Shown here in pieces: positions 8,793 through 63,358 of a stretch of DNA of 64,000 nt (position 1 is the stretch's first letter; each line of letters begins with the position of its first letter). A program made the translations under genes and the position numbers. The notes under the pieces were generated by a model, which was given only the letters and a program-made list of their open reading frames with translations, was not told the origin of the DNA and searched no databases. This stretch comes from Betaproteobacteria bacterium (GTDB lineage Bacteria > Pseudomonadota > Gammaproteobacteria > Burkholderiales > SG8-41). The stretch lies in contig VGID01000001.1 in assembly GCA_016868035.1 (NCBI GenBank), forward strand, positions 198,509 through 262,508, read 5' to 3'.

Positions 8793-8877
8793 CAGTAAGC
8801 AGTAAACGGTGAGCGGTGCGCGGTAAAACACACCCTCGCAGCTTCCCGCCGCTGACCGCTCCACGCTTACCGCTTAC
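8793..8877. repeat. heptad-periodic inverted-arm element A (5 x CAGTAAG/CGGTGAG, core, 4 x CGCTTAC-type)
   Basis: Tandem 7-nt units start 4 nt after the M23 stop codon; the reverse-complement heptads end 10 nt before the anmK ATG. Confidence 0.85.
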
Positions 8878-9995: not shown

Positions 9996-10026
9996 CGGTG
10001 AGCGGTAAGCGGTGAGCGGTGAGCGG
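9996..10026. repeat. heptad array B (CGGTGAG/CGGTAAG, about 4.4 units, single arm)
   Basis: Lies between the anmK stop and the terminator hairpin. Confidence 0.8.
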
Positions 10027-23025: not shown

Positions 23026-23142
23026 GCGTTTCGAGTTCCGAGTTCCGGGTTCAAGGTTCAAGGTTCCGGGTTTAACGTTGCCCGTTCAGAGTTCGTGGTC
23101 TCGAACTTTGAACGTTGAACTTTGAACTTGGAACTTTGAACG
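23026..23142. repeat. heptad-periodic inverted-arm element G (7 x GAGTTCC/AGGTTCA, core, 5.7 x GAACTTT)
   Basis: Starts 8 nt after the apaG stop. Its core TTGCCCGTTCAGAGTTCGTGGTCTC resembles the core of element I. Confidence 0.88.
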
Positions 23143-25278: not shown

Positions 25279-25327
25279 GGTTCGGGGTTTCGAGTTTCGG
25301 GTTCCGGGTTCCGGGATCCGGGTCTCA
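25279..25327. repeat. heptad array H (7 x GGTTCCG/GGTTTCG, single arm)
   Basis: Lies between convergent mltA and the TonB-like gene. Confidence 0.85.
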
Positions 25328-31403: not shown

Positions 31404-32362
31404 AGCCCGTCGAAGTCGTCTTCGCCCCCGTCGACAACCAGCGGCTCGCCAGCCTGTGCGGCGTGCTGGACGAGAACCTGCGCCAGATCGAGACCGCGCT
31501 CGATGTCACCATCGCGCGCAGGGGCGAGCGCTTCGCGCTGACCGGGGGGCCCGAGCAGACCCGCGTCGCGGCCAAGGTGCTGCACATGTTCTACGATCGC
31601 GCGAAGGGCGGGCTCACGCTCGAGGACGTGCAGCTCGGCCTGATCGAGGCGACGGGCCCGCTACGGAGCGTCCCGGCGGACGCCGGGCCGACGCTGATCA
31701 CGCGCCGCCAGGACCTGCACGGGCGCACACCGCGCCAGGTGCAGTACCTGCAGGACATCCTCACCCACGATCTTACCTTCAGCATCGGCCCGGCCGGCAC
31801 CGGGAAAACGTATCTGGCGGTGGCGTGCGCCGTGGACGCGCTCGAGCGCGACGCCGTGAAACGGATCGTGCTGGTGCGCCCGGCGGTGGAGGCCGGCGAG
31901 CGCCTGGGGTTCCTGCCCGGCGACATGGCCGCGAAGGTGGACCCTTATCTGCGCCCGCTCTACGACGCGCTCTACGACCTGATGGGCTTCGACAAGGTGG
32001 CCAAGATGTTCGAGCGCGGCACGATCGAGATCGCGCCGCTTGCCTTCATGCGCGGGCGCACGCTCAACCACGCGTTCGTGATCCTGGACGAGGCGCAGAA
32101 CACCACGCCCGAGCAGATGAAGATGTTCCTCACCCGCATTGGCTTCGGCAGCAAGGCGGTGGTGACCGGCGACGTGACGCAGATCGACCTCGCGCGCGGC
32201 CAGAAGAGCGGGCTGATCGAGGCGCAGGTCGTGCTGCGCAAGGTGCGCGGCATCTCGTTCATCTACTTCAACGCCGAGGACGTGGTGCGCCATCCCCTGG
32301 TGCAGCGTATCGTCAATGCCTACGAGCAGCACACCCACAAGCAGAAGAGCAAGGAAGCCTAG
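31400..32362 (+). CDS. ybeZ: PhoH-family ATPase (YbeZ-like)
   Basis: C-terminal 320 aa of ORF 30218..32362. Walker [12 protein letters not shown] start overlaps the miaB stop (TTGA). Confidence 0.9.
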
Positions 32363-32795
32363 GCTTGCGCTTGCGGTCCAGTACGCGGTCAAGGGCCGCC
32401 GCCTTCCTTCCCGCAGCGAGCTGCGCCGGTGGGCGCGCGCCGCGCTCGAGCACGACGCCCGCATCACGGTGCGCATCGTCGGCCGCGACGAAGCGCGCGC
32501 GCTCAACCGCGCGTTCCGCGGCCGCGACTACGCGACCAGCGTGTTGAGCTTCGTGATGCGCGCGGTACCGCCGCTGGAAGGGGACCTCGCATTGTGCGCG
32601 CCGGTCGTGGCGCACGAAGCGCGCGACCAGCGCAAGAGCGTGCGCGCACACTACGCGCACCTGGTAGTGCATGGAGTGCTGCACTTGCAGGGCTACGATC
32701 ACGGCCGGGCGCGCGAGGCGCGTATCATGGAGCGGCGGGAGACGGCCATCGTGACCGGCCTCGGCTATCCCGACCCCCACGAAAGGCAAGGATGA
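32316..32795 (+). CDS. ybeY: rRNA maturation endoribonuclease YbeY
   Basis: HGVLHLQGYDH zinc motif. The start is uncertain; ATG 32316 would overlap ybeZ by 47 nt. Confidence 0.88.
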   Translation: MPTSSTPTSRRARKPRLALAVQYAVKGRRLPSRSELRRWARAALEHDARITVRIVGRDEARALNRAFRGRDYATSVLSFVMRAVPPLEGDLALCAPVVAHEARDQRKSVRAHYAHLVVHGVLHLQGYDHGRAREARIMERRETAIVTGLGYPDPHERQG

Positions 32796-32883
32796 AGGCA
32801 GAAAGCGGAAGGCGGAGGGGAACTGCCCGTTCGGGGATCTGGTCTTTTCCTTCATCCTTCATCCTTCATCCTTCCGCCTTCTA
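32790..32883. repeat. heptad-periodic inverted-arm element I (GGATGAA/GGCGGAA arm, core, 5 x CCTTCAT arm)
   Basis: The first heptad contains the ybeY TGA. The right arm ends 6 nt before the corC ATG. Confidence 0.88.
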
Positions 32884-32888
32884 GGGCC

Positions 32889-33713
32889 ATGGACGACGAC
32901 CGACACCGGCCCACGCTGCTCGAGCGGCTCGGCGCGCTCATCATGCGCGAGCCCGAGGACCGCGAGCAGCTGGTCGAGCTGCTGCGCTCCGCGAACTCGC
33001 GCGGCCTGCTCGACGGCGAGGCGCTCGCGATGATCGAAGGGGTGCTGCAGGTCTCGGAGATGCAGGCGCGCGACATCATGATCCCGCGCGCGCAGATGGA
33101 CGTCATCGACATCAGCGATCCGCCGGACAGGTTCATCCCGCTCGTGATCCAGACCGGGCACTCGCGCTTTCCCGTGTTCGGGGAGAACAAGGACGACGTC
33201 ATCGGCATCCTGCTCGCGAAGGACCTGCTGCGCTATTACGCGGGCGAGGAGGAATTCGACGTGCGCGAGATGCTGCGGCCCGCGGTGTTCATACCCGAGG
33301 CGAAGCCGCTCAACGTGCTGCTCAGGGAGTTCCGCAAGAACCGCAACCACATGGCCATCGTGGTGGACGAGTACGGCGGGGTGGCGGGATTGGTCACGAT
33401 CGAGGACGTGATCGAGCAGATCGTCGGGGACATCGAGGACGAGTACGACTTCGAGGACGTCGAGGACAACATCGTCCCGGAAAAAGGCGGCCAGTACCGG
33501 GTGAAAGCGCTTGCCGAGATCGCGGACTTCAATGCCGCGTTCGGCACCGACTACAGCGACAAGGAATTCGACACCGTCGGCGGGCTCGTGATGTCGCGTT
33601 TCGGGCACGTGCCCAAGCGCGGCGAGCAGGTGAGCTTCGACAATCTCACGTTCAAGGTGCTGCGCGCAGACAGCCGGCGGCTGCACCTGCTGCAGGTCAC
33701 CAGGAAAAAGTAA
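32889..33713 (+). CDS. corC: CBS-pair plus CorC_HlyC domain protein (magnesium/cobalt efflux CorC)
   Basis: 274 aa with two CBS domains and a C-terminal transporter-associated domain. Conserved miaB-ybeZ-ybeY-corC-lnt order. Confidence 0.92.
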   Translation: MDDDRHRPTLLERLGALIMREPEDREQLVELLRSANSRGLLDGEALAMIEGVLQVSEMQARDIMIPRAQMDVIDISDPPDRFIPLVIQTGHSRFPVFGENKDDVIGILLAKDLLRYYAGEEEFDVREMLRPAVFIPEAKPLNVLLREFRKNRNHMAIVVDEYGGVAGLVTIEDVIEQIVGDIEDEYDFEDVEDNIVPEKGGQYRVKALAEIADFNAAFGTDYSDKEFDTVGGLVMSRFGHVPKRGEQVSFDNLTFKVLRADSRRLHLLQVTRKK

Positions 33714-33716
33714 GGG

Positions 33717-35294
33717 ATGATGGCGGAAGGCGGAAGGCGGAAGGATGCCGTCGCATCTGCTCTGCCCTTCCTCCTCGTTTTCGTCGTCGGCGCAGTGGCC
33801 GTGCTCGGCTTCGCGCCGTTCCGCCTGTTCCCGCTGCCCATCCTCACCGTCGCGCTGCTGCTCGCGTTATGGCTGCGCGCGGGCAGCCCGCGCGCGGCGG
33901 CCGCGCTTGGCTTCGCGTACGGGCTCGCATTCTTCCTCGCCGGCGCCTCGTGGGTGTACGTGAGCCTGCACGAGTTCGGCTCGATGCCGGCGCCGCTCGC
34001 CGCGCTCGCGACTTTCCTGTTCTGCGCCGTGCTGGCGCTGTTTCCCGCGCTTGCCGGCTATGCCTGCGCGAGGACCGCCCTGCCCCCGCCGTTCGCGCTC
34101 GGGCTGCTCGCGCCGGCGGCATGGACGCTGGCGGAATGGACGAGGGGATGGATCTTCACCGGCTTTCCGTGGCTCGCACTCGGTTACTCGCAGATCCCGG
34201 CGAGCCCGCTCGCGGGCTACGCGCCGCTGCTGGGCATCCACGGCGTCACGCTGGCCGGCGCATTGACGGCGGGCCTCCTCGTCGTGCTGTGGCAACGCGT
34301 TACAGCGAGGGATGAAGGACCGGGCGACCAGCGCAAACGGGGCCTGACCTTCCTCGTTCTGCCTTCTGCCTTCTGCCTTCTGGCGATCTGGCTCGGCGGG
34401 TGGGCGCTCCAGCAGGTCCGGTGGACCGAGCCGGAGGGCGACCCGGTCACCGTGAGCCTGCTCCAGGGCAACATCTCGCAGGAGCTCAAGTGGCGCGAGG
34501 ACCGCGTGCGCACCACGCTCGAGACCTACCGCACGCTCGCCGAGAACGCGCCGGGCCGGCTCATCGTAATGCCCGAGACCGCGCTGCCGCTGTTTCTGGA
34601 CCAGGTACCGCACGAGTACCTGTCATCGCTCGCGGAGCACGCGCGGAAGAACGGCGGCGACATCCTGATCGGGGTGCCGGAGCGCGTGCCCGGCGGCGCG
34701 TACTTCAACAGCGTGCTCTCGCTCGGCTCCGCGCCGGCCCAGGGCTACCGCAAATCGCACCTGGTACCGTTCGGGGAATTCATCCCGCTGCGCCCGGTGC
34801 TCGGATGGATCGTGGGCGTGCTCGCGATCCCGCTGCAGGATTTTTCCGCGGGTGAAGCAACGCAGCGCCCGCTCGCGGTGGCGGGACAGCGGGTAGCGGT
34901 CAACATCTGCTACGAGGACGCGTTCGGGGAGGAGATCATCCGCCAGCTGCCGGAGGCGAGCCTGCTCGTCAACGTGAGCAACGTCGCGTGGTTCGGGCGC
35001 TCGATCGCCCCGCAGCAGCACCTGCAGATCTCGCAGGCGCGCGCGCTGGAGACGGGGCGCTACATGCTGCGCTCGACCAACACCGGGGTCACGGCCACGA
35101 TCAATCCGAGGGGCGAAGTTGCGGCCATCGCACCGGAGTTCACCGCCGCGATCGTGACCGACACGGTGCAGGGTCACCGGGGGCTGACCCCCTACGCGCG
35201 CTGGGGGAATTACCCCGCGCTCGCGCTCTGTATCGCGCTCTGGGCGGGCGCCGTGGTGGCGGGAAGGCGCCGGCGCGACACCTCCCGCAACTGA
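33717..35294 (+). CDS. lnt: apolipoprotein N-acyltransferase
   Basis: 525 aa with multiple N-terminal TM helices and a C-terminal CN-hydrolase domain (NICYED). Confidence 0.93.
   Translation: MMAEGGRRKDAVASALPFLLVFVVGAVAVLGFAPFRLFPLPILTVALLLALWLRAGSPRAAAALGFAYGLAFFLAGASWVYVSLHEFGSMPAPLAALATFLFCAVLALFPALAGYACARTALPPPFALGLLAPAAWTLAEWTRGWIFTGFPWLALGYSQIPASPLAGYAPLLGIHGVTLAGALTAGLLVVLWQRVTARDEGPGDQRKRGLTFLVLPSAFCLLAIWLGGWALQQVRWTEPEGDPVTVSLLQGNISQELKWREDRVRTTLETYRTLAENAPGRLIVMPETALPLFLDQVPHEYLSSLAEHARKNGGDILIGVPERVPGGAYFNSVLSLGSAPAQGYRKSHLVPFGEFIPLRPVLGWIVGVLAIPLQDFSAGEATQRPLAVAGQRVAVNICYEDAFGEEIIRQLPEASLLVNVSNVAWFGRSIAPQQHLQISQARALETGRYMLRSTNTGVTATINPRGEVAAIAPEFTAAIVTDTVQGHRGLTPYARWGNYPALALCIALWAGAVVAGRRRRDTSRN
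33722..33749. repeat. heptad array J (3 x GGCGGAA + GGATGCC) inside the first codons of lnt
   Basis: Encodes residues AEGGRRKD of the predicted Lnt N-terminus. Same heptad flavour as element I, about 900 nt upstream. Confidence 0.75.
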
Positions 35295-35368
35295 ACGCGC
35301 GCGCGGCAATTCTGTCGTATGATCTGACCCCGGCGCCCCGGCCGGCGCCCTGCCTGGAGGACCCGCTG

Positions 35369-36361
35369 ATGAAGCGCCTGCTCACTGCACTGCTGCTTGC
35401 CCTTACCACGGCGAATGCCTGGGCCGCGGGGCTCATCGTGGATACCGCATTCGTGAGCGAGGCCGTCCAGCGCGGCGCCATCGTCTGGGACGTGCGGAGC
35501 GCGGACCAATACCGCATGGGCCACATCCCGGGGGCGGTGAACATCGGTCATGCCGGCGCCGTGCTGCGCAATCCCAACACCGAGGACTTCATCCCCGTAG
35601 CCCAGATCGAGCGCATCCTCGGCGCCGCCGGCATCGATCCCGCGAAGGAGATCGTGGTCTACGCGAGCCGCGGCGACCCGTTCGCCTATTTCGGGCTCTA
35701 CACCATCCAGTATTTCGGCGGCAAGCGCGTCCACGTCTACCACGACGGCATCGACGGCTGGCGCGAGGCCGGGCGCTCGGTCAGCTCCGCGGGATACCGG
35801 CGCGCCCCCGTATCGCTGAAGCTCGCGACGAATCCCGCCGTGGCTGCGATGACCAGCGAAGTCATCGCCGCGCTCAAGCGGCGCGACGTGCAACTGCTCG
35901 ACGTGCGCACCGTGGGTGAGTTCACGGGCGACGACATCCGCGCCATACGGGGCGGCCACATCCCCGGCGCGGTAAACATCCCGTACGAGCAGAACTGGAT
36001 GGACCCCGACACCCCGCTCAAGGTCGCGCGCAGGCAGGCGAAGGACAACGCGGGCATGACGCTCAAGCCCGTGAACGAGCTCAAGCGCCTGTACTCAGGC
36101 CTCGACCCGGGCAAGGAGACGATCGTCTACTGCCAGAGCGGCGTGCGCGCGGCGCAAACCGCGACGGTGCTCTCGCAACTCGGCTTCAGGAACGTGAAGG
36201 TCTACGACGCGTCGTGGCTCGGCTACGCCGGGGTGCTCTCCGCTCCCGCTAACAACGAGGTGTTCTTCAACGTGGGCGCGCTCCAGGGCCGGCTCTCGGC
36301 GCTGCAGTCTCGCATCGATCAGCTCGAGCGCGAGCTCGGCGAAGCGCGGGCCAGGAAATAG
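35369..36361 (+). CDS. periplasmic tandem-rhodanese sulfurtransferase with C-terminal coiled coil
   Basis: 330 aa starting MKRLLTALLLALTTANAWA, after a GGAGG SD. Two rhodanese domains; the active-site CQSGVR loop is in the second. Confidence 0.85.
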   Translation: MKRLLTALLLALTTANAWAAGLIVDTAFVSEAVQRGAIVWDVRSADQYRMGHIPGAVNIGHAGAVLRNPNTEDFIPVAQIERILGAAGIDPAKEIVVYASRGDPFAYFGLYTIQYFGGKRVHVYHDGIDGWREAGRSVSSAGYRRAPVSLKLATNPAVAAMTSEVIAALKRRDVQLLDVRTVGEFTGDDIRAIRGGHIPGAVNIPYEQNWMDPDTPLKVARRQAKDNAGMTLKPVNELKRLYSGLDPGKETIVYCQSGVRAAQTATVLSQLGFRNVKVYDASWLGYAGVLSAPANNEVFFNVGALQGRLSALQSRIDQLERELGEARARK

Positions 36362-36391
36362 CAGCCGGCCGCCGCCGGCGCGGCGCGCGAC

Positions 36392-36422
36392 GGGAGCGAC
36401 GCGCTCGCTCCCGTTTTCGTTT
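36392..36422 (+). terminator. rho-independent terminator after the rhodanese gene
   Basis: GGGAGCGA...TCGCTCCC stem followed by GTTTTCGTTT. Confidence 0.65.
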
Positions 36423-36473
36423 CCACGGACGGCAGGCACCATTCCCGCCGGCTCCCGGTAGCCTGTAGAATTC

Positions 36474-39400
36474 GTGGCGTACGAGCGGCCGGCGCGCATG
36501 CATACCTTCCAACAGGTCATACTGAAGCTCAACGAGTACTGGGACCGGCGGGGCTGCGCGCTGCTCCAGCCCTACGACATGGAAGTGGGCGCGGGCACCT
36601 TTCACACGGCGACCTTTCTGCGCGCGATCGGCCCCGAGCCCTGGAATGCGGCCTACGTCCAGCCTTCGCGCCGGCCCAAGGACGGGCGCTATGGCGAGAA
36701 CCCCAACCGCCTGCAGCACTACTACCAGTACCAGGTGGTGATGAAGCCCTCGCCCGACGCGTTCCAGGAGCTCTATCTCGGATCGCTCGAAGCGCTGGGC
36801 GTGGACCCGCGCAAGAACGACATCCGCTTCGTCGAGGACGACTGGGAATCGCCCACGCTCGGCGCGTGGGGGCTGGGCTGGGAAGTGTGGCTGAACGGCA
36901 TGGAGATCACGCAGTTCACCTATTTCCAGCAGGTCGGCGGGCTCGACTGCAAGCCGGTGCTGGGGGAGCTCACCTACGGGCTCGAGCGGCTCGCGATGTA
37001 CCTTCAGGGCAAGGAGAGCGTGTTCGACCTCGTGTGGGTGGACGGCGTCAGCTACCGCGACGTGTACCACCAGAACGAGGTCGAGCAGTCGCGCTACAAC
37101 TTCGAGCTCGCCAACACCGGGATGCTGCTCCAGCACTTCGGACAGTTCGAGGCCGAGGCGAAGCGGCTGATCGAGGCGCAATGCGTGCTGCCGGCCTACG
37201 AGATGGTCATGAAGTGCTCGCACAGCTTCAACCTGCTCGATGCGCGCGGCGCGATTTCGGTGACCGAGCGCGCCGCCTACATCGGACGCGTGCGCGCGCT
37301 CGCGCGGCTGGTGGCGCAAGCCTACTACGAAGCGCGCGAGCGGCTCGGCTTCCCGATGCTGGAGCAACCGCATCCGGCAAAGAACAAGGCAGGCGCCTCA
37401 CCAATGCCAAGCCGCAAGACCGCCATGGCTTCCGCGCCCGCGAGTTTGCTCGTCGAGATGCTGACCGAGGAGCTGCCCCCGGGGGCGTTGCAACGGATCG
37501 CGGAGGCCTTTCGTGACGCGTTGCTGGAAGACCTGAAAGAAGACGGGTTTCTCATGCCCGGCAGCGCCGCGCAAGTTTTCGCGACGCCGCGGCGTCTTGC
37601 CGTCTTGATCTCGGAGGTGCGACGCGTTGCGCCGGATAGCGAAGTGCTGGTGAAAGGCCCCTCGGTCAGGGCCGGCCTGGATGCTGGCGGCCAACCGACG
37701 CAAGCCTTGCTCAAGTTCGCCGAGAAGCGCGGTGTTGCGGTCGAGGCCCTTGTTCGCATCAACGACGGCAAGCAAGAGGTCTTCGCACACCGTGATCTTG
37801 CGAAGGGAGGGCGCCTCGACACCAACCTGGAGCTAAAGATTGAAGAAGCGCTCAAACGCCTGCCGATCCCGAAGATGATGCGCTGGGGCGGCGGCGACGA
37901 ACAGTTCGTGCGTCCAGTGCACGGGCTGGTGATGTTGCACGGGATGAACGTTGTGCCAGGAAAGGTGTTGGGGGCAAGCAGCTCCAACAAGACCTCCGGG
38001 CACCGTTTTCTTTCTCCGGGAAGAATCGCGCTCGAGCGCGCGGACGATTATGAGCCAGCGCTGCGCGGCAAGGGCAAGGTGATCGCTGAGTTTGCCGGGC
38101 GCCGGTCCGAAATCGCGAACCGACTCGAGAGGGCTGCCGGCCGCGAAGCGATTATCGTCGCGGACGATGCGCTGCTTGACGAGATTTCCGCTCTGGTGGA
38201 ATCACCGGCGGTCTACGCCGGAAATTTCAGCGCGGAGTTTCTCACCGTGCCGCACGAGTGCCTGGTGCTGGCGATGCAGCAACATCAGCGATACGTCCCG
38301 CTGCGCGACAAGGCGAGCAGAAAGCTGCTGCCGCGCTTCCTGTTCGTATCCAACATCGAGGCGAAGGATCCGCGCGAGATCATCCACGGCAACGAGCGCG
38401 TGCTGCGCGCGCGCCTCGCGGACGCGAAGTTCTTCTTCGACCAGGACCGGAAGACGCGACTCGAGGCGCGCGTGCCCCGGCTCGCGGGCGTCATCTACCA
38501 CAACCGGCTCGGCAGCCAGCTCGAGCGCGTCGAGCGCGTGCAGCTGCTCGCGGGCAAAATCGCGCGGGCAATCGGCGCGGATCCGCTGCTCGCTGAGCGC
38601 GCGGCCTGGCTGTCCAAGGCGGACCTGCTGACCGACATGGTGGGGGAATTCCCCGAGCTGCAGGGAACCATGGGGCGCTACTACGCGCTGCACGACGGCG
38701 AGCCGCAGGCCGTCGCCGACGCGATCGAGGCCCACTACCGTCCCCGGTTCGCCGGCGACGACACGCCGAAGGACCCGATCGCCGCCGCCGTGGCGCTCGC
38801 CGACAAGCTCGACACGCTGGCGGGCATCTTCGGGATCAATCTCGTTCCCACCGGAGACAGGGATCCGTACGCGTTGCGGCGCGCGGCGCTCGGCGCCGTG
38901 CGCATCCTCGCCGAGAACAAGCTGCCGCTGGAGCTCGACGCACTGATCGCGGATGCCGCCTCCCATTACACCGCGGTGAAGCTCGACCCCGAAGGCGTGG
39001 GAAAGGTCTACGGGTTCGCGCTCGACCGCATGCGCTCCTACCTGCGCGAGTCCGCCTTCACCGCAGACGAGATCGAGGCGGTCGTCGCACAGAATCCCGC
39101 CCGCGTGGACCTCGTTCTGCCGCGCGCGAAGGCGGTGCGCGCGTTCCGGTCGCTGCCGGAGGCCGAGAGCCTCGCGGCGGCCAACAAGCGCATACGCAAC
39201 ATCCTGCGCCAGAGCGCGCAGGGCGGCGCAAGCCTCACCGAGTCGCTCTTCCGCGAGCCCGCGGAGCGCGAGCTGCACGACGCCGTGCGCCGCCTCACGC
39301 CCCGGATCGACGCGAGCATCCGCCGCCAGGACTACACCGATGCGCTGTGCGCGCTGGCGAGCCTGAAGGGCAACGTGGACACCTTCTTCGACAAGGTGCT

Positions 39401-39506
39401 GGTCAACGCGGAAGACCGGAGCCTCCGCGAGAATCGCCTCGCGCTGCTTACGCAGCTCTCGACGCTCATGAACGAGGTCGCGGATATCTCCAAGCTTGCC
39501 GCCTGA
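36474..39506 (+). CDS. glyQS: glycine--tRNA ligase, alpha (GlyQ) and beta (GlyS) moieties in one uninterrupted 1010-codon frame
   Basis: Residues 1-295 are GlyQ-like (ends ERLGFPM). A linker of about 25 aa contains no stop. From [12 protein letters not shown] onward the sequence is GlyS-like. An internal ATG at 37425 could also start a separate beta chain. Alternative glyQ start ATG 36498. Confidence 0.88.
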
Positions 39507-39509
39507 ACG

Positions 39510-39601
39510 CAGTGAACAGTACACGGTGAGCGGTAAACGGTAACTACATTTATGCACCCTTTTTCTTCTGCCCACCGCTCACTGCTGACCGTTCACCGTT
39601 C
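39510..39601. repeat. heptad-periodic inverted-arm element K (CAGTGAA/CGGTGAG/CGGTAAA arm, core, ACCGCTC/ACCGTTC arm)
   Basis: Starts 4 nt after the glyS stop and ends 4 nt before the gmhB ATG. Confidence 0.88.
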
Positions 39602-39604
39602 GCC

Positions 39605-40138
39605 ATGAAACTAGTCATCCTCGACCGCGACGGCGTCATCAACTACGACAGCGCCGCCTACATCAAGAGCCCCGAGGAATGGAAAGCGATTCCGGGCAGC
39701 GTCGAGGCGATCGCGCGCCTGACGCAGGCGGGCTTTCACATCGTCGTGGCGACCAACCAGTCGGGGATCGGGCGCGGCCTGTTCGGGATGGCCACGCTCA
39801 ACGCGATCCACGAGAAAATGCATCGCGCCGTCGGCCACGCAGGCGGCCGCATCGACGCGGTGTTCTACTGCCCGCACGCGGCGGAAGCCGGGTGCGGCTG
39901 CCGCAAGCCCAAGCCCGGATTGCTCGAGGAGATCGCGCGCCGGTTCAGCGCGAACCTGCGCGACGTGCCCTGCATCGGGGATGCGGCGCGCGACCTGGAG
40001 GCGGCGAGCGCCGTCGGCGCGCAGCCGATCCTGGTGCTCACCGGAAAAGGGAAGAAGACGCGCGCCGCGGGGGACCTGCCGCCAGGAACCCGCGTCTTCG
40101 CCGACCTCTCCGAGGCCGCGAAAGACATCGCAGGATGA
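39605..40138 (+). CDS. gmhB: D-glycero-beta-D-manno-heptose 1,7-bisphosphate 7-phosphatase
   Basis: 177 aa. Has the HAD motif DRDGVIN and the zinc-binding CxH...CxC (CPHAAEAGCGCRKP). Confidence 0.9.
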   Translation: MKLVILDRDGVINYDSAAYIKSPEEWKAIPGSVEAIARLTQAGFHIVVATNQSGIGRGLFGMATLNAIHEKMHRAVGHAGGRIDAVFYCPHAAEAGCGCRKPKPGLLEEIARRFSANLRDVPCIGDAARDLEAASAVGAQPILVLTGKGKKTRAAGDLPPGTRVFADLSEAAKDIAG

Positions 40139-40863
40139 CGCCGGGGATCATCACGCGATCGCTACTCTTCGCGCTGATCCAGGTCGTCGCAACACCCCTG
40201 TTCGCGCTCGCTGCGCTCGCGACGTTTCCCTTCAAGCCGCTCGCCCGCTACCGCGTCGTCACTGCATGGTCACGACTGATGGTCGCATCCGCCACGCGGC
40301 TCTGCGGGATACGTTACCGCGTGCTCGGCGCCGAGCGCCTGCCGCGCCCGCCATTCATCGTGCTCGCGAAGCACCAGTCCGCGTGGGAGACGCTCGTGTT
40401 CCAGGTGATTCTTCCCCCGCAGGTATGGGTGATCAAGCGCGGCCTGCTGTGGATCCCCTTCTTCGGCTGGGGTCTGGCAATGCTCTCCCCGATCGCGATC
40501 GACCGCGGCGCCGGGCGCCGGGCGCTGCGCCAGATGCTCGAGCAGGGACGCGAGCGGCTGGCGCAGGGCTTCTGCATCGTCATCTTCCCGGAGGGCACGC
40601 GCGTTCCCCCGGGCGCGCGCGGTCAGTATCAACCCGGCGGCGCGTGGCTCGCGGTGAAGACCGCGACGACGGTGGTGCCGGTCGCGCACAACGCGGGCGA
40701 AGTATGGCAGCGCCGGGCTTTGTTCAGGCGCCCCGGGTTGGTTACCGTGAGCATCGGCCCGCCGATCGAGCCCGCCGGCCTCGAGCCCGAGGAGCTCAAC
40801 CGCAAGGTGGAGGACTGGATCGAAGGGGAGATGCAGCGCATCGGCAACGACCCTAGGCGGTGA
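40135..40863 (+). CDS. plsC: 1-acyl-sn-glycerol-3-phosphate acyltransferase
   Basis: 242 aa within ORF 39679..40863. Motifs AKHQSAWE (HX4D variant) and FPEGTR. ATGA overlap with the gmhB stop. Confidence 0.86.
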   Translation: MTPGIITRSLLFALIQVVATPLFALAALATFPFKPLARYRVVTAWSRLMVASATRLCGIRYRVLGAERLPRPPFIVLAKHQSAWETLVFQVILPPQVWVIKRGLLWIPFFGWGLAMLSPIAIDRGAGRRALRQMLEQGRERLAQGFCIVIFPEGTRVPPGARGQYQPGGAWLAVKTATTVVPVAHNAGEVWQRRALFRRPGLVTVSIGPPIEPAGLEPEELNRKVEDWIEGEMQRIGNDPRR

Positions 40864-40990
40864 ACGGTGAACGGTGAACGGTGAACGGTGAACGGTGAAC
40901 GGTGAACGGTGAACGGCAGAAACGGACCCGCGTTTTCGTGGAAGTTCTCCGCTTACGGTTTCTTGCACTGCTCGCCGCCGACCGCTTACC
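40859..40990. repeat. heptad-periodic inverted-arm element L (8 x GGTGAAC, conserved core, degenerate GCTTACC-type arm)
   Basis: The first heptad contains the plsC TGA. Core AGAAACGGACCCGCGTTTTCGTGGAAGTTCTCCGC is shared with elements P, Q and C. Confidence 0.9.
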
Positions 40991-41000
40991 ATACCTGCCC

Positions 41001-41156
41001 ATGCGCGCCTTGCTTCCGATGATCGTCCTCACCGCGCTCGTGGCCGGGTGCGGCTACAAGACGCCCCTCACCCTGCCCAAGCCCAAGCCCGAGGCGCAAA
41101 AGCCCGAAACGCCCGCGCCGATAAAGCCGGACGAAAAGAAGCCCCCGGCTTCGTGA
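41001..41156 (+). CDS. lptM: small lipoprotein LptM/YifL-like (51 aa)
   Basis: Lipobox LVAGC followed by a Pro/Lys-rich tail. The position immediately upstream of lysA is typical. Confidence 0.7.
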   Translation: MRALLPMIVLTALVAGCGYKTPLTLPKPKPEAQKPETPAPIKPDEKKPPAS

Positions 41157-42400
41157 GCCATTTCGAATACAAAAACGGCGAGCTGCACGCGGAATCAGCC
41201 TCTCTGCGCCAGATCGCCGAGCGCTTCGGCACGCCCTGCTACGTGTACTCGCGCGCCGCGCTGACCGCGGCCTACCGCGCGTTCGACGCGGCCTTCGCCG
41301 GCCACGACCACCTCGTGTGCTACGCGGTGAAGGCGAATTCCAATCTCGCCGTGCTGAACCTTTTTGCCCGTCTGGGCAGCGGCTTCGACATCGTGTCCGG
41401 CGGCGAGCTGCAGAGAGTGCTCGGCGCGGGCGGCGACCCCGCAAAGGTCGTGTTTTCCGGGGTCGGCAAGTCCGCCGAGGAGATGCGCGAGGCGCTGGCT
41501 GCGGGGATTCTGTGCTTCAACGTGGAGTCGGAAGCGGAGCTCGCGCGGCTGAGCCGGGTGGCTGCCCGGGCCGGCGGGACGGCGGCGGTGAGCCTGCGCG
41601 TCAATCCCGACGTAGATCCCCGTACCCACCCCTACATCGCCACCGGTTTGCGGCAGAACAAGTTCGGCGTGCCGTACCGCGACGCGCTCGATCTCTACCG
41701 GCGCGCGCGCGAGCTCCCGAATATCGCCATCTCCGGCATTGGCTGTCACATCGGCTCGCAGCTGACCGACGTGACCCCGTTCGTCGCGGCGCTCGACCGC
41801 ATCCTGGAGCTGGCGGACCGGTTGCAGGCGGACGGCATTGCGCTCGCGCACGTGGACATCGGCGGCGGGCTCGGCATCCGCTACCACGACGAGTCCCCGC
41901 CCCGGGTCGAGGACTACGCCAGCGCGCTCGCGCCGCGGCTCGGCAGGCGCGCGTTGAAGCTCCTACTGGAGCCCGGCCGCGTGCTGGTCGGCCACGCGGG
42001 GGTGCTGCTCACGCGGGTCGAGTATCTGAAGCGCGGCCCGGAGAAAAACTTCGCGGTGGTGGACGCGGCGATGAACGATCTCATGCGCCCCGCGCTCTAC
42101 GACGCCTGGCACGACGTGCTGCCGGTCTCCCGCGCCGGCCGCAGCGGCGGGGCGCCCTACGAGATTGTCGGTCCGGTGTGCGAAAGTGGGGACTTCCTCG
42201 CGCGCGGGCGCACGCTCGAGCTCCGGGAGGCCGAGCTGCTCGCCGTCATGGCGGCGGGCGCCTACGGGATGAGCATGAGCTCCAACTACAACACCCGCCC
42301 GCGGGCGGCCGAAGTCATGGTGGACGGCGGAGACACGTACCTGGTGCGCGAGCGCGAAACCGTCGCGCAACTGCTGGCGCGCGAGACGATTCTTCCGTGA
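41153..42400 (+). CDS. lysA: diaminopimelate decarboxylase
   Basis: 415 aa from the GTG overlapping the lptM stop (GTGA). PLP motif YAVKAN; GGGLGI and CESGD motifs. Confidence 0.96.
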   Translation: MSHFEYKNGELHAESASLRQIAERFGTPCYVYSRAALTAAYRAFDAAFAGHDHLVCYAVKANSNLAVLNLFARLGSGFDIVSGGELQRVLGAGGDPAKVVFSGVGKSAEEMREALAAGILCFNVESEAELARLSRVAARAGGTAAVSLRVNPDVDPRTHPYIATGLRQNKFGVPYRDALDLYRRARELPNIAISGIGCHIGSQLTDVTPFVAALDRILELADRLQADGIALAHVDIGGGLGIRYHDESPPRVEDYASALAPRLGRRALKLLLEPGRVLVGHAGVLLTRVEYLKRGPEKNFAVVDAAMNDLMRPALYDAWHDVLPVSRAGRSGGAPYEIVGPVCESGDFLARGRTLELREAELLAVMAAGAYGMSMSSNYNTRPRAAEVMVDGGDTYLVRERETVAQLLARETILP

Positions 42401-42526
42401 GTGAACGTGGTTCCGGGTTTCGCGTTCCGGGTTTCGAGCTCCAGGTTCCACGTTCCAGGTTTCGGGTTTCGGGTTTCGGGTTTCGGGTTTCGGTTTTTTT
42501 GAACCTTGAACTTTGAACCTTGAACG
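42401..42526. repeat. heptad-periodic element M: 18 consecutive in-phase heptads that switch from GGTTYCG-type to TTGAACY-type at about 42495
   Basis: Starts 1 nt after the lysA stop and includes 5 perfect GGGTTTC units. It marks the left edge of the accessory block. Confidence 0.9.
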
Positions 42527-42610
42527 CGGAATCGCAAGCGGCGGCGCGCCGCATTGTTGCAGCAAACACGACGAATCATATGCCATGGTCAAGCGGAATC
42601 AAGAAAGATG

Positions 42611-42638
42611 TTGCATTTTTTTGACTGTGGCATAGAAT
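42611..42638 (+). promoter_or_regulatory. sigma70-type promoter of the poly-lysine micro-ORF transcript
   Basis: TTGCAT, 16-nt spacer, TAGAAT, in a locally AT-rich stretch. Confidence 0.5.
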
Positions 42639-42644
42639 GGGCGC

Positions 42645-42780
42645 ACCAAGCATAACGTTCCGAAGAATTTTTTCGGAGCGGAACAGAGCAAAGCAGCGAA
42701 TACTGTTTACGTTATGCGATGGGGTGCGGACGCAAACCCGCGCGCAGCGATGCCTAAGTCAACTTTAAAGGAGACTTGAA
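42645..42780 (+). other. structured 5' leader of about 135 nt (candidate cis-regulatory RNA)
   Basis: GCATAACGT (42650-58) pairs with ACGTTATGC (42709-17). This encloses hairpins TCCGAA/TTCGGA (42659-77) and AACAG/CTGTT (42682-42707). The SD AAAGGAG follows. Confidence 0.4.
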
Positions 42781-42825
42781 ATGGCAAAGAAAAAAGCAGC
42801 GAAAAAGAAAGCCAAGAAAAAGTAG
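42781..42825 (+). CDS. 14-codon poly-lysine micro-ORF (MAKKKAAKKKAKKK)
   Basis: ATG 7 nt after AAAGGAG. The stop is followed within 15 nt by a strong terminator. Coding status is unproven. Confidence 0.35.
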   Translation: MAKKKAAKKKAKKK

Positions 42826-42839
42826 TTTTGCCTGCTCAC

Positions 42840-42874
42840 GGGGGCCGGGCATCCCCCGGCCTCCGTTATTTTTT
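42840..42874 (+). terminator. rho-independent terminator after the micro-ORF
   Basis: 10-bp GC-rich stem (42840-49 / 42855-64) followed by GTTATTTTTT. Confidence 0.75.
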
Positions 42875-43305
42875 CATTCCTTCGCGCGGCGCATCCGCCT
42901 GCCGCCACCACACCGACAGCTACCACACCCCCGGCTGCAGCGCCCGCTTGGCTGGGTAATTATCCTATATTAATCAATGTGTTGTTTAGCGCGTCGCATG
43001 ACGCGTCGGGTCGCAGCCACGTCCGCTTTGCTGGTACGCATGGAGAAAGTACTGCCAGTCGTGCGTGCGCACATCGTCGCGTTTGGCGCGCCGCACGCGG
43101 TCGAGCACGCTGCGCAGCCAGAGATGCAGCGCGGCATCGTGTCGCGGTACTCATCCGCACATAATGTTTTTTCGCGGCTCGCGCACGCTCGTCGTCCGGC
43201 TCGGCGCACACAAGCTCGCAGTCCAGTCAACCACGGATGCGAGCCGTGGGCGCCGGATGCGCCCGGGCGGGATTCCTGGGCGAGCAGTGCGCGGAACGAT
43301 GCGCT

Positions 43306-43336
43306 GCGTCCGTTCGAAATCCCGGAGATAAACCGG
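43306..43336. repeat. 31-nt direct repeat, copy 1 (GCGTCCGTTCGAAATCCCGGAGATAAACCGG)
   Basis: 26 of 31 nt identical to 43381-43411, 75 nt away. Confidence 0.75.
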
Positions 43337-43380
43337 AGCTCCGGGGCGTCCACGTCCCAACGCGTGTTGAACGGCGCGAG

Positions 43381-43411
43381 GCGTCCGTTCGAACTCGCGT
43401 AGATAAACCGG
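43381..43411. repeat. 31-nt direct repeat, copy 2 (GCGTCCGTTCGAACTCGCGTAGATAAACCGG)
   Basis: See copy 1. Its GATAAACCGG end forms an inverted repeat with CCGGATTTATC, which overlaps the anti-sigma stop codon. Confidence 0.75.
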
Positions 43412-43433
43412 CGCCGGCAGGCGTCCGGATTTA

Positions 43434-44186
43434 TCAGGGATTGAGCTGGCGGTACACCGCGGTGGCCACCCGCAGCAACTCGTCCTTCCCGATTTCTCCG
43501 GAAAGGGCGTAACCGAGCTTGCGGTCGATCCAGTAGAACACGCCCACGTTCCTCTCCTGCGCGAAGCGGAACGCGGTCTCGCGGCTATCCTCGGGATTGA
43601 CGCGCACGTAGAGCGTCAGCCGCTGCCCCCTGGCATCCTGGTACATGAACTGCGCCGCCGGCCCGCGCTCGTCCGGGAGCAGCCTCCCGCCCACGAGCGC
43701 GTAGCCGAGATCGCCCAGGTGGGGGATCCTGAGCGGGGCGCCGAGCCGCTTGGAGAGCCAGTTGACGAGGTGCTTCTCCTGGTCGGCGCCGACTTCCACC
43801 GGGTGCCGCACCTCGGGGCTGTAGACCACGTGGGCGATGGCCGCGCGGTGCGGCCACGCCGTCGCCTCTGTGCGCCGCTCCGCCTGGAGCCCGTGCAGGT
43901 GCCAGCCGGCGACCCCGCCCAGCGTGACCCACGCGACGATCGCGGCGTATCGCAGGACGGGCTGGCGGCGCTCCACCCGCGCCGCCAGCCGCTGCGGCAC
44001 GGGCTCCTCGAGCACCGGGGCGTAGCGCGCGCGCAGCGCCTCGTTCTGCCTGCGGTAGGCCACGACGCGCTCGGATTCCTCGGGATGGCCCGCAAGATAG
44101 GCCTCGACTTCGGCGCGGCGCGCTTCGGGCAGCACGCCGTCCACGTACCCGTGCAGGTCGGATTCGGTGACGGGAAGCTGGCTCAT
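43434..44186 (-). CDS. anti-sigma factor (N-terminal anti-sigma domain, one TM helix, periplasmic domain)
   Basis: 250 aa within ORF 43434..44738. LHGYVDGVLPEARRAEVEAYLAGHPE is typical of ECF anti-sigma factors. ATGA overlap with the sigma gene stop. Confidence 0.8.
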   Translation of the reverse strand: MSQLPVTESDLHGYVDGVLPEARRAEVEAYLAGHPEESERVVAYRRQNEALRARYAPVLEEPVPQRLAARVERRQPVLRYAAIVAWVTLGGVAGWHLHGLQAERRTEATAWPHRAAIAHVVYSPEVRHPVEVGADQEKHLVNWLSKRLGAPLRIPHLGDLGYALVGGRLLPDERGPAAQFMYQDARGQRLTLYVRVNPEDSRETAFRFAQERNVGVFYWIDRKLGYALSGEIGKDELLRVATAVYRQLNP

Positions 44187-57421: not shown

Positions 57422-57548
57422 CCGTGATCGCTGATCCGTGACTCGAACGAATACGGTGAACCGTGATCGGTGAACGGCGAACGGTGAACGGAAGGTTGCG
57501 GCTGCGCCGGTGAGTTTACACCGTTCACTGTTCCCCGTTTACCGTTTA
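57422..57548. repeat. heptad-periodic inverted-arm element N (about 10 x CCGTGAT/TGAACGG-type, core, 4 x CCGTTCA/CCGTTTA)
   Basis: Starts 2 nt after the enolase-family stop. Confidence 0.85.
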
Positions 57549-58086: not shown

Positions 58087-59670
58087 ATGCCGGTCGGAGA
58101 AGACGGCGCGGGCAGCGCCCTGGAGCCGTTTCAGTTCACCGACGCCGCCAGCTGCAGGGCGTGGCTCGGGCGGCTGGCCGGCGCGGACGCCGCCGTGCGC
58201 CACGCCTCGTTCGGGCGCCACGTACGGCAGGTGCCGGAGGCGCTGCTCGCGCCGGCGGTCAAGCTCGAAGTGCTCGAGACGATGCGCGAAGCGGTGCACG
58301 CGGCGCAGGCCGAGCACGCAAAGGACCACCGTGGCAGGGCGGTGCCGCTCAATCCCGGCCACCGCGCCGCGTGGCAGGAAACGGTCGGCCTGTGGCGCGC
58401 TCTGGCGAGCGCCTACGAGTCGCTGATCGCCGACATGGCGGAAACGGCGCCGGAACTCGCGACGCACGCGGCGCTGATCTGCCAGCGCGTGCTGCGCTAT
58501 ACGGGGCTGGCGATGGGAGAGTACAACCGCGCCTACCACAGCGTCCCGGAGGAACTGTGGCAGCAGCTGCACCGGCTGTACGTCTTCGCCGAGAACGCCG
58601 TCGTCGCAACCGCGCGCGTGCGCGACGGCGTGGAGCGCATCGCGGCGGAGACCACCTGCACCGCGGCGTACGTGCGGAGCCTGCTCGCGCAGCTTGCCCA
58701 ACCGGACGCGCTCACCATCCGCCAGATGGACATCGTGGACCGGTGGCTCGACCACTGGGAAGGTCTGGTAAGCCTGTCGCCCGAGCCCGCGCGCTCGAGC
58801 ACGGTCGCCGCGCTCGCGGTGGACCTCATGTCCCAGAAAGGCGCCGCCCTCGCCAAGCAGATGCCGGCGGCCGGAGCGCGCCACCTGAACCTCGATAATC
58901 TGGGCAGGACGCTGCGGCAGGCATCCGCTTCCCTCAAGAAGGGCCAGACACCGTGGCAAATCGGGCTCGGCGAGCTGCGCCCCGACGTATGCGAGATGAT
59001 GCTCGTGCTGCTGTACATCCAGTGGTGCGCCGCCGGCACGGGCCGCGTGGACGAGCGCACCGCCGCGAGCATGAGCGTGAGAATCTGCCCGGGGATCGCG
59101 TCCATCCACCACCAACTCACGGGGCGGCCTCTCCGGCAACCCGAGGGCGAGCCCGCGCTGCGCGTGGTGGGCAACGGCAGCATGCCCGAATGGGACGAAC
59201 CGCCTCCGGCTGCAACCGAGACCTGGTCCATCGTCAACAAGAGCGCCTCGGGATTCCTCGGCCTTTGCCGCAAGCCGGACGTCAACGCGCCCGTCGGTCA
59301 CCGGCAGCTCCTCGGGATGAAGGCGGGGCCGGAAAAAGGCATCTACGTCGGCATCGTCCAGCGGCTGAACGTGGACGCGAACGGCTCGGTCTGGGTCGGC
59401 CTGCGGCTCATCTCCGCAGGCCCGCAGCCGGCCGCGGTGCGCACTGCGGAAGAGAGGGCCGGCGATTCCGCCGGCGGAGCCTACGAACGCGCGCTGCTGC
59501 TGCCCGAAGATGCGGCGCGCAACGTGCCCACAACCCTAGTGCTGCCGCCGAAATGGTACCGGCCCGAGCGCGTGCTCGAAGTTCACACCGGCACGGGGCA
59601 ACGGATCCGGCTGCAGGCCCTGCTCGAGGAAGGTCCGAATTTCGAGCGCGCAACCTTCGCTCCCGCCTGA
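58087..59670 (+). CDS. conserved hypothetical protein, paralog A, with PilZ-like C-terminal signature (527 aa)
   Basis: Paralogous to 61616..63217 along the whole length. The C-terminal IVNKSASGF...VGIVQRL...VWVGLRL fits the (D/N)xSxxG beta-barrel pattern. Confidence 0.8.
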   Translation: MPVGEDGAGSALEPFQFTDAASCRAWLGRLAGADAAVRHASFGRHVRQVPEALLAPAVKLEVLETMREAVHAAQAEHAKDHRGRAVPLNPGHRAAWQETVGLWRALASAYESLIADMAETAPELATHAALICQRVLRYTGLAMGEYNRAYHSVPEELWQQLHRLYVFAENAVVATARVRDGVERIAAETTCTAAYVRSLLAQLAQPDALTIRQMDIVDRWLDHWEGLVSLSPEPARSSTVAALAVDLMSQKGAALAKQMPAAGARHLNLDNLGRTLRQASASLKKGQTPWQIGLGELRPDVCEMMLVLLYIQWCAAGTGRVDERTAASMSVRICPGIASIHHQLTGRPLRQPEGEPALRVVGNGSMPEWDEPPPAATETWSIVNKSASGFLGLCRKPDVNAPVGHRQLLGMKAGPEKGIYVGIVQRLNVDANGSVWVGLRLISAGPQPAAVRTAEERAGDSAGGAYERALLLPEDAARNVPTTLVLPPKWYRPERVLEVHTGTGQRIRLQALLEEGPNFERATFAPA

Positions 59671-59683
59671 AGCGGTCGCGAAG

Positions 59684-59790
59684 GCGTTCCAGGTTCAAGG
59701 TTCAAAGTTCAAGGTTCAAGGTTCAAGGTCTATAGTCCAGAGCCAAGACCCGGAACCTGGAACTTTGAACTCGGAACCCGGAACTTTTTT
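59684..59790. repeat. heptad-periodic inverted-arm element O (7 x AGGTTCA, core, 6 x CCCGGAA/CTTTGAA)
   Basis: Lies between paralog A and the DUF2817-like gene. The right arm contains the only available start codon (TTG 59765) of that gene. Confidence 0.88.
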
Positions 59791-60850
59791 TTCGCCGGAT
59801 TACGCCACCGCGCGCGACCGGTTCACGCGCGCCGCGCGGGCGGCGGGGGCCCGGACCGAGGCCATCGCGCTCGATGCGCGCGGCCCGGCGCGCGAGGCGC
59901 TGACCATCGATATCGCCTGGCTCGGCGCGCCGGACGCGGACCGCGTGTTGCTGCATACGAGCGGCATGCACGGCGTCGAGGCGTTCCCCGGGTGCGCGGT
60001 GCAGCTCGCGGCGCTATCCGAATTCGCGGCGCTCGCGCCGGGTTGCGCGCTGGTGCTCGCGCACGCGCTCAATCCATACGGCATGGCAAGGCTGCGGCGC
60101 ACGAACGAGAATAACGTGGACCTCAATCGCAACTTCCTGGCACCCGGCGAGAGCTACCGCGGCTCGCCGCCGCTCTACGCGCGCATCGATGCGGTGCTCA
60201 ATCCCGCGTCACCGCCGGGTTTCGATTTCTTCCGCCTCAAGGCTCTCGGTCTGGTGATGCGCTACGGCATGGGCGCGCTGCGGCAAGCGGTTGCGCAGGG
60301 CCAGTACGACTACCCGCGGGGCCTGTTTTATGGCGGCAGCATGCTCGAGCAAGGCCCCGCCTTGTTTCTCGGCTGGCTCGGGTGCAAACTCGCGCGCGTG
60401 CGCTACCTGTTCGTTCTCGACGCACACAGCGGGCTCGGCGCCTGGGGAGAGCAGACCTTGATTGGCGCGCCCGGCGTGAACGCCACGGGTGCGCTGGAGC
60501 TCGCGGGCGCGCTTGCGCACGCGGTGATCGACCCGGCCGACAGCCGCTCGCCCGCGTACACGATCCGCGGCGGCATGGCGGGTGCGCTGCGGCACACTCT
60601 GCCTGCGGCCCGCATGGACTTCGTGCTGCAGGAAATCGGGACCTGCTCCGCGATCGCGGTTCTTGGCGCCCTGCGCGAGGAGAACCGCTGGCACCACTAC
60701 GGCGCGGCAACGGTGGATCATCCCGCGAAGCTCGCGTTGCGCGAGGCGCTGTGCCCGGGTTCACCGGTCTGGCGCCGGCGCGTGCTCGCGCACGGCCGTG
60801 GCCTGCTCGAGCGCGCGGCGGTGTGGACGTGGAACTACGGTGAACGGTGA
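59765..60850 (+). CDS. DUF2817-like M14-type metallopeptidase-fold protein
   Basis: 361 aa. FSPDYATARDRF N-terminus and the SGMHGVEAF zinc-site-like motif. The start is uncertain. Confidence 0.78.
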   Translation: MNSEPGTFFSPDYATARDRFTRAARAAGARTEAIALDARGPAREALTIDIAWLGAPDADRVLLHTSGMHGVEAFPGCAVQLAALSEFAALAPGCALVLAHALNPYGMARLRRTNENNVDLNRNFLAPGESYRGSPPLYARIDAVLNPASPPGFDFFRLKALGLVMRYGMGALRQAVAQGQYDYPRGLFYGGSMLEQGPALFLGWLGCKLARVRYLFVLDAHSGLGAWGEQTLIGAPGVNATGALELAGALAHAVIDPADSRSPAYTIRGGMAGALRHTLPAARMDFVLQEIGTCSAIAVLGALREENRWHHYGAATVDHPAKLALREALCPGSPVWRRRVLAHGRGLLERAAVWTWNYGER

Positions 60851-60936
60851 ACGGTGAACGGTGAATGGCGAACGGCAAAATCCGACCCGCGCTCTTCTGG
60901 AAGTTTCCCGCTCGCTGCTCACCGCTTACCGCTCAC
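60838..60936. repeat. heptad-periodic inverted-arm element P (4 x CGGTGAA + 2 variants, conserved core, 4 x CGCTCAC/CGCTTAC)
   Basis: The second heptad supplies the stop codon of the DUF2817-like gene. Core AAAATCCGACCCGCGCTCTTCTGGAAGTTTCCCGC. Confidence 0.9.
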
Positions 60937-63224: not shown

Positions 63225-63358
63225 GGGTAAGCGGTAAGCGGTAAGCGGTAAGCGGTAAGCGGTAAGCGGTAAGCGGTAAGCGGTAAGCGGTAAGCGGTAA
63301 AATTGGACCGGGTTTCTCTACGAAGTTCCCTGCTCACCGCTTACTGCTTACTGCTTAA
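63225..63358. repeat. heptad-periodic inverted-arm element Q (11 heptads, 9 perfect CGGTAAG, conserved core, 4 x TGCTTAC-type)
   Basis: Lies between convergent paralog B and the histidine kinase gene. Core AAAATTGGACCGGGTTTCTCTACGAAGTTCCCTGC. Confidence 0.92.

Follow-up and report, generated by a model that had tools for sequence, protein, structure and literature searches.

Heptad repeats that abut stop codons recur in unrelated bacteria and, with seven leaving a remainder of one on division by three so that three stop-bearing copies close all three reading frames, a purpose in stopping translation in every frame is the obvious guess. A described case is that of the TAACTGA heptamer repeats of marine Beggiatoaceae, which present stops in all three frames and in which 13 ORFs end; overlap of ORFs with these repeats is limited to a few codons, and this was read as a constraint on placement and not as a function (MacGregor 2015, PMC4679880). 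Among long simple-sequence repeats, a period of 7 has been described as by far the most frequent (Mrazek et al. 2007, in the summary of PMC4679880); with the STRR-type repeats these form one kind, to which heptamers of Xanthomonas and Nostoc are assigned here (PMC4692102). From a different perspective, additional stop codons have been considered as a fail-safe and off-frame stops in the context of the ambush hypothesis (PMC6764699, PMC3700767, PMC5909447), although a survey of eubacteria yielded no evidence that extra stops at 3′ ends are selected for (PMC6764699).

The genome considered here (G000; 3.9 Mb, 66% GC, and the basis of all genome-wide counts below) is that of a Betaproteobacteria bacterium, and the window referred to throughout is a 64,000-nucleotide stretch of it (contig VGID01000001.1, positions 198,509 to 262,508 of the forward strand; features are given by window position and are on the plus strand). 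Genome-wide there are 417 period-7 arrays as against 15 at period 6 and 4 at period 8, and with a looser score 753 as against 85 and 32; the period-7 arrays are a true feature of the whole genome, far beyond chance. Their density is ~0.19 per kb, they are nearly perfect overall, and their ~98 unit types, TAACTGA not being among the common ones, include identical units that recur at dozens of loci. By gene calls from the authors' own codon-likelihood caller (85% coding; no standard tool), 372 of the 417 are intergenic. Convergent spacers contain arrays most often (24.5%), ahead of co-directional ones (16%) and divergent ones (7.6%). Array-bearing spacers have a median length of 126 nt, the first array beginning 24.5 nt past the stop and the last ending 34.5 nt ahead of the next start. 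An adjacent array is a property of ~7% of all genes, and about 100 genes terminate inside one.

The array flagged at the outset (40858-40916; 8.4 perfect copies of CGGTGAA, or GGTGAAC, by TRF) overlaps the end of a plsC-like acyltransferase ORF (40135-40863; Pfam Acyltransferase), whose TGA at 40861-63 is at the same time the TGA of the first heptad, and the C-terminal tail of the encoded protein is unlike that of any congener. The array is a G-rich 5′ arm; its partner, the 3′ arm at 40940-40992, is degenerate, C-rich and of the GCTTACC type. Between this palindrome and lysA, a small ORF (40902-41156) resembles the LptM conserved region at a score below threshold (24.5 bits, cut-off 27.3); its called start at 40902 falls within the array, and the actual start probably lies near 41002. 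For the neighbouring genes there is Pfam support, namely for the plsC-like acyltransferase, DUF2817, YbeY, LysA, GlyS, the enolase-family protein and the M23 peptidase (7473-8789).

A preliminary description of this DNA had proposed that certain arrays act as barriers in three frames and, as simple arithmetic, this is correct: all five plus-strand arrays that it named (40859-40914, 63225-63301, 9996-10026, 39510-39544 and 57422-57491) contain a stop in every plus frame and in no minus frame. The second of these, a GGTAAGC 5′ arm placed by TRF at 63226-63300 with 10.7 perfect copies, begins 8 nt past the stop of a 533-aa ORF, the C-terminus of whose product is that of an array-free congener save for one conservative residue. 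The array at 9996-10026 (CGGTGAG/CGGTAAG) lies 17 nt past the anmK stop, that at 39510-39544 is the 5′ arm of a decayed palindrome after glyS (39510-39601), and a palindrome after the enolase-family gene (57422-57548) has a GGTGAAC-type 5′ arm and a GTTCACC/GTTTACC 3′ arm. That the opposite arms do the same for the minus strand holds for some, such as the C-rich 3′ arm at 63330-63358 (CTGCTTA/GCTTACC type), which closes three minus frames; two are closed by 57519-57548 and by 39573-39601, and only one by 40940-40992. TTGAACC, which had been listed among the minus-strand closers, closes plus frames instead.

The further claim that the stops of plsC, the DUF2817 gene (60848-50) and ybeY (32793-95) are part of a heptad stands, each being a TGA in or on one. 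In the palindrome that overlaps the end of the DUF2817 gene (60837-60936), the second heptad supplies the TGA at which the gene stops. At ybeY, a GAAGGCG 5′ arm starts on the stop and a TCCTTCA 3′ arm closes three minus frames (palindrome 32794-32881), but this array is a weak one, with 3.3 copies and 81% matches. The genes lysA, glyS, M23 (followed at 8793-8877 by a palindrome with a CAGTAAG/CGGTGAG arm and then a CCGCTTA arm) and the enolase-family gene do stop just ahead of arrays, at a distance of 1-8 nt and not the 1-4 nt first given, TRF placing the lysA array 8 nt past the stop. Other elements in the window are arranged differently. A reversed case at 42409-42526 has a GGTTTCG/GGTTCCG 5′ arm without a plus-strand stop, followed by a TTGAACC 3′ arm that closes plus frames, and at 23028-23141 a GGTTCCG/GGTTCAA 5′ arm that is stop-free on the plus strand is followed by a GAACTTT 3′ arm closing plus frames. 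At 59686-59790, the GGTTCAA 5′ arm has no plus-strand stop, the CGGAACT/TTGAACT 3′ arm closes one plus frame, and a T run is present. A plain counter-example is the GGTTCCG array after a MltA-like gene (25279-25323), which is stop-free in every frame on both strands. As to the gene complement, two long ORFs, at 58087-59670 (527 aa) and 61616-63217 (the 533-aa ORF referred to above), score well as coding sequence yet match nothing in Pfam at E<=0.1, the latter having a 73%-identical orthologue in the congener G004.

On folding, each array pairs with an inverse heptad opposite it, the two making the arms of a long imperfect hairpin; the palindromes are ~100 nt long, and the energies predicted for their stems lie between -36 and -74 kcal/mol. 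With 110 arrays paired directly and 373 assigned to a 5′ or 3′ arm genome-wide, a strict polarity is apparent: units of 5′ arms have more G than C in 138 instances and less in 4, while for 3′ arms G is the lesser in 145 and the greater in 8. The polarity is the same in spacers between two plus-strand genes, between two minus-strand genes, and in convergent and divergent spacers (in the last, 13:0 for 5′ arms and 0:7 for 3′ arms), and it is seen again in the congener G018 (5′ arms 14 with G>C and 5 with G<C; 3′ arms 16 with G<C and 2 with G>C). Lone arrays divide evenly, 95 being G-rich and 94 C-rich on the sense strand. Because a palindrome is identical on both strands, the G-rich arm is met first on either strand and, given the fixed polarity, so is the arm with TGA or TAA. 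Hairpin stability alone would yield no polarity, which points to a directional generating mechanism, and the question raised is what makes palindromes with the G-rich strand always toward the centre.

Comparison with congeners is informative as to how the elements came to be where they are. In G004, whose shared genes are ~75% identical to those of G000, there are 2 arrays in 400 kb (C6:1-400000), and in G009 there are 7 in 293 kb, as against 75 in 352 kb in G018, a density near that of G000; within one genus, heptad arrays are thus patchy, nearly absent from two members and dense in a third. The dominant units of G018 also differ from those of G000, with AATGATG prominent and, in contigs picked for array hits, CCGGGTT. 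Orthologous junctions that are 13-28 nt in G004 are ~100-140 nt and filled with heptad palindrome in G000, and many elements occupy sites that in congeners are tight operon junctions. The closeness of arrays to stop codons is a consequence of the small size of the original spacers. Where an array lies downstream of the stop, the protein C-terminus is essentially that of the congener, with a length difference of 1-3 residues at most; where the gene ends inside an array, the protein tail is 5-11 aa longer. The arrays thus modify the C-termini of about 100 proteins, and they separate genes that in relatives are tightly joined.

Turnover is also evident at individual junctions, where orthologous spacers among congeners hold different or decayed units. 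Past the glyS stop (window 39507-39601), an orthologous, decayed array of GTGAATC type is present in at least five congeners (L003, L005/L052, L009, L011 and L013), and in four others glyS directly abuts the next gene, a distribution that suggests an old insertion kept or lost among congeners. TGA has gone from some units of the decayed glyS arrays, and the arrays directly after lysA are stop-free in the congeners G008 (GGCAAAA x6) and G002.

Attention is also drawn to a set of related elements that carry a gene. There are 7 matches to PF05635 (23S_rRNA_IVP) in G000, and heptad palindromes (in one case a 14-mer palindrome) with the same G-rich 5′ polarity enclose at least five of the seven genes in their loops. 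Those in palindrome loops (L101-L105) are at C47:15239-15553, C32:20658-20954, C32:16093-16374, C49:12268-12579 and C2:2111-2413, and the unit types are as in the elements of the window, the 20-60 nt loops of which contain no ORF. The ORF-less palindromes of the window may well be short versions or derivatives of the PF05635-carrying elements, and the relation of the palindromes to elements with a small four-helix-bundle gene is the next question.

The reading that is judged probable is that the arrays are the arms of palindromic heptad-repeat insertions of the STRR or long simple-sequence repeat kind, with three-frame closure a by-product of arithmetic and polarity, and the excess of stops at gene ends an effect of boundary and survivorship. 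In this lineage, the elements are insertions in very short spacers directly after genes. The first arm on either strand is rich in G and in purines, with TGA or TAA in most of its units. Where an element touches or replaces the native stop, a few residues of the tail are altered or added. An array overlapping a stop codon must contain one, which would by itself create an excess of stop-bearing units at the boundary, and stop-bearing arms would be least damaging at a 3′ end, which would add an excess by survivorship. The elements themselves are perhaps selfish, or else neutral.

A different possibility, considered unlikely, is that the palindromes are RNA hairpins at 3′ ends, serving as terminators, as substrates for processing by RNase III, or to stabilise mRNA in the manner of REP sequences, with the stops incidental. 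The long predicted stems are in keeping with this, as are the enrichment of arrays at 3′ ends, their depletion in divergent spacers and the T run that follows one element, and RNase III does cut the stems of 23S rRNA intervening sequences, the family to which the gene in the related full-length elements belongs. Nevertheless, for intrinsic terminators, with their short GC-rich stem and U tract, the match is poor: a terminator scan of 32000-44000 flagged none of the heptad hairpins there, with a count not above that of shuffles, and a T run ends only the element at 59686-59790. An Rfam gathering search of the window yielded one tRNA and nothing else, so no family match accompanies the hairpins. 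Many of the elements moreover sit within junctions that are tight operon junctions in congeners, and the array-free congeners manage without them. Selection on the sense RNA by way of G-U pairs was rejected, arm mismatches compatible with such pairing numbering 61 on the sense strand and 98 on the antisense strand in co-directional spacers. The antisense surplus is an observation in its own right, for which a strand-specific mutation bias may be the explanation.

Somewhat less probable again is that the arrays were selected as frame-independent fail-safe stops or insulators between packed genes, off-frame and downstream stops being rare at 66% GC. The arrays certainly shorten potential read-through. 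The median distance downstream of a gene at which all three frames are closed is 52 nt with an array and 458 nt for other genes, about nine-fold more, and in the gene's own frame a further stop follows after 27 nt as against 105 nt. A benefit is therefore conceivable, but this is an effect and not evidence of selection. The preference of the arrays for 3′ ends, already described, would also fit.

More pertinent is the composition of the units. When compared with a null matched in composition (non-array intergenic 7-mers), units with a stop are ~1.4-fold in excess. On the G-rich strand a stop is present in 64% of arrays (46% expected) and in 53% of unit types (38% expected), the latter to be read with the caution that 83 of 86 unit types join one single-linkage cluster, so types are not independent and type-level z-scores overstate significance; on the C-rich strand the figure is 10% with 11% expected. 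The excess over composition on the G-rich strand is real but modest. It is also local. Among arrays with a G-rich sense strand, and with d the number of nucleotides from the end of the stop codon to the start of the array, the share with a stop is 67% at d 0-5 (expected 49%) and 58% at d 6-10 (44%), and then 50% at d 11-15 (52%) and 38% at d 16-30 (43%). Enrichment of the proximal arms would be expected of a fail-safe, but that it reaches no further than about 10 nt from the gene stop argues against one. Gene stop and array share the heptad register in 18 of 59 cases at d -3 to 5, and in 7 of 49 at d 6-15. Divergent spacers show no stop enrichment either (52%, with 51% expected), though this control is small (n=44, Fisher p=0.10).

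The strand on which the stops are read is no more favourable. A bias of stop-bearing units toward the sense strand of the upstream gene, genome-wide, was what the preliminary description had looked to in support of its proposal, and it is absent: in co-directional spacers, 36% of arrays have a sense stop (expected 34%) and 42% an antisense stop (expected 36%), a comparison in which, because of palindromic symmetry, selection acting on one arm cannot be told apart fully from the image of it that the partner arm shows. Immediately next to stop codons there is a strong bias, 63% of the arrays 0-5 nt past the stop carrying one on the sense strand and 4% one on the antisense strand, and arrays 31-200 nt away showing the reverse, but this derives from the fixed polarity of the palindrome and is independent of gene orientation. 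Stop-bearing arms are found just as often facing the downstream start and read antisense, a direction in which ribosomes do not come (83 of 133, 62%), as facing the upstream stop and read in the sense direction (61 of 97, 63%). In co-directional spacers of 80-200 nt that contain arrays, three-frame closure is 67% for the sense strand and 61% for the antisense strand, where it would be useless, and in those without arrays it is 33% and 26%; beyond the polarity of the palindrome there is no sense bias to explain.

The identity of the stops is also at odds with selected termination. Genes of G000 stop at TGA in 60% of cases, at TAG in 26% and at TAA in 14%, yet among the units of 666 arrays TGA/TCA, the commonest symmetrised trinucleotide in units, occurs in 385, TAA/TTA in 109 and TAG/CTA in a mere 8 (about 1%). 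Were the arrays insurance for leaky termination, they might be linked to TGA as the primary stop, but the usage of primary stops is no different with and without stop-bearing arrays (TGA 60% in both, p=0.88). In the GGTNANC family, the A of TGA or TAA is invariant (518 of 518); as a sign of stop function this was considered and rejected, variants with TGG and with TAG being both absent. Among genes with an array 0-15 nt downstream, the unit has no sense stop in 72 of 163 (44%), and, as noted above, most genes have no adjacent array at all. Congeners that are nearly array-free, the decay of stops in orthologous arrays and the negative eubacterial survey weigh in the same direction, and the enrichment does not recur in G018, where stops are in 61% of arrays overall (58% expected) and in 8 of 19 proximal ones (8.5 expected). 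A frame-independent stop or insulator under selection, as had been put forward for this window, accordingly finds no support in tests of strand, position, stop identity or replication. Its own stated alternative, that stop-bearing heptads may simply be the ones permitted outside ORFs, in this case at the ends of genes, fits the data better.

A hybrid would be that a selfish repeat was in part taken over as an insulator against translation in all three frames, its proximal, stop-bearing G-rich arms being preferentially retained and ending read-through or frameshifted translation before the hairpin or the next gene. The idea arises from alternative frames being open for hundreds of bases in a GC-rich genome, and it is regarded as improbable, to much the same degree as selection of fail-safe stops outright. 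Birth of arrays from a gene's own stop, as their main source, was rejected, since TAG ends 26% of genes and is nearly missing from units, and units recur at dozens of loci. The tempting three-frame-stop story can be set aside, with arithmetic, fixed polarity and a boundary effect sufficing here.

REP and BIME elements consist of a conserved family of imperfect palindromes of ~35 bp with a cognate RAYT transposase; the arms in G000 are built of periodic units, differ widely in sequence and do not resemble a REP consensus. Fail-safe and ambush stops have in common with the arrays the proposed benefit, a lower cost of read-through or frameshifted translation, but they are single codons shaped by selection, and in G000 stops arrive in bulk with the repeat. 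The features of selected fail-safe stops were not found in G000 with regard to strand, stop type or leakiness of the primary stop, and replication in G018 failed. With the TAACTGA repeats there is closer likeness, in that the forward repeat stops three frames and ORFs end in its first units (here about 105 genes end inside or on an array). That system, however, has one unit, in direct repeats mostly toward a nearby downstream start codon, as distinct from the about 100 unit types of G000, which form inverted arms of palindromes with fixed G-rich 5′ polarity and lie mostly just past stop codons. With the heptanucleotide long simple-sequence and STRR repeats, the arrays share a dominant period of 7, an intergenic location, and variability of unit and copy number, and also rapid turnover, both the unit and the presence of arrays differing between congeners (G004, G009, G018). 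What sets G000 apart from these is the great density of its arrays, their palindromic arrangement, and the presence in several of a 23S_rRNA_IVP gene in the loop. The arrays of G000 are a dense new example of this known kind of heptad repeat, the three-frame arithmetic of which was already noted for TAACTGA by MacGregor (2015).
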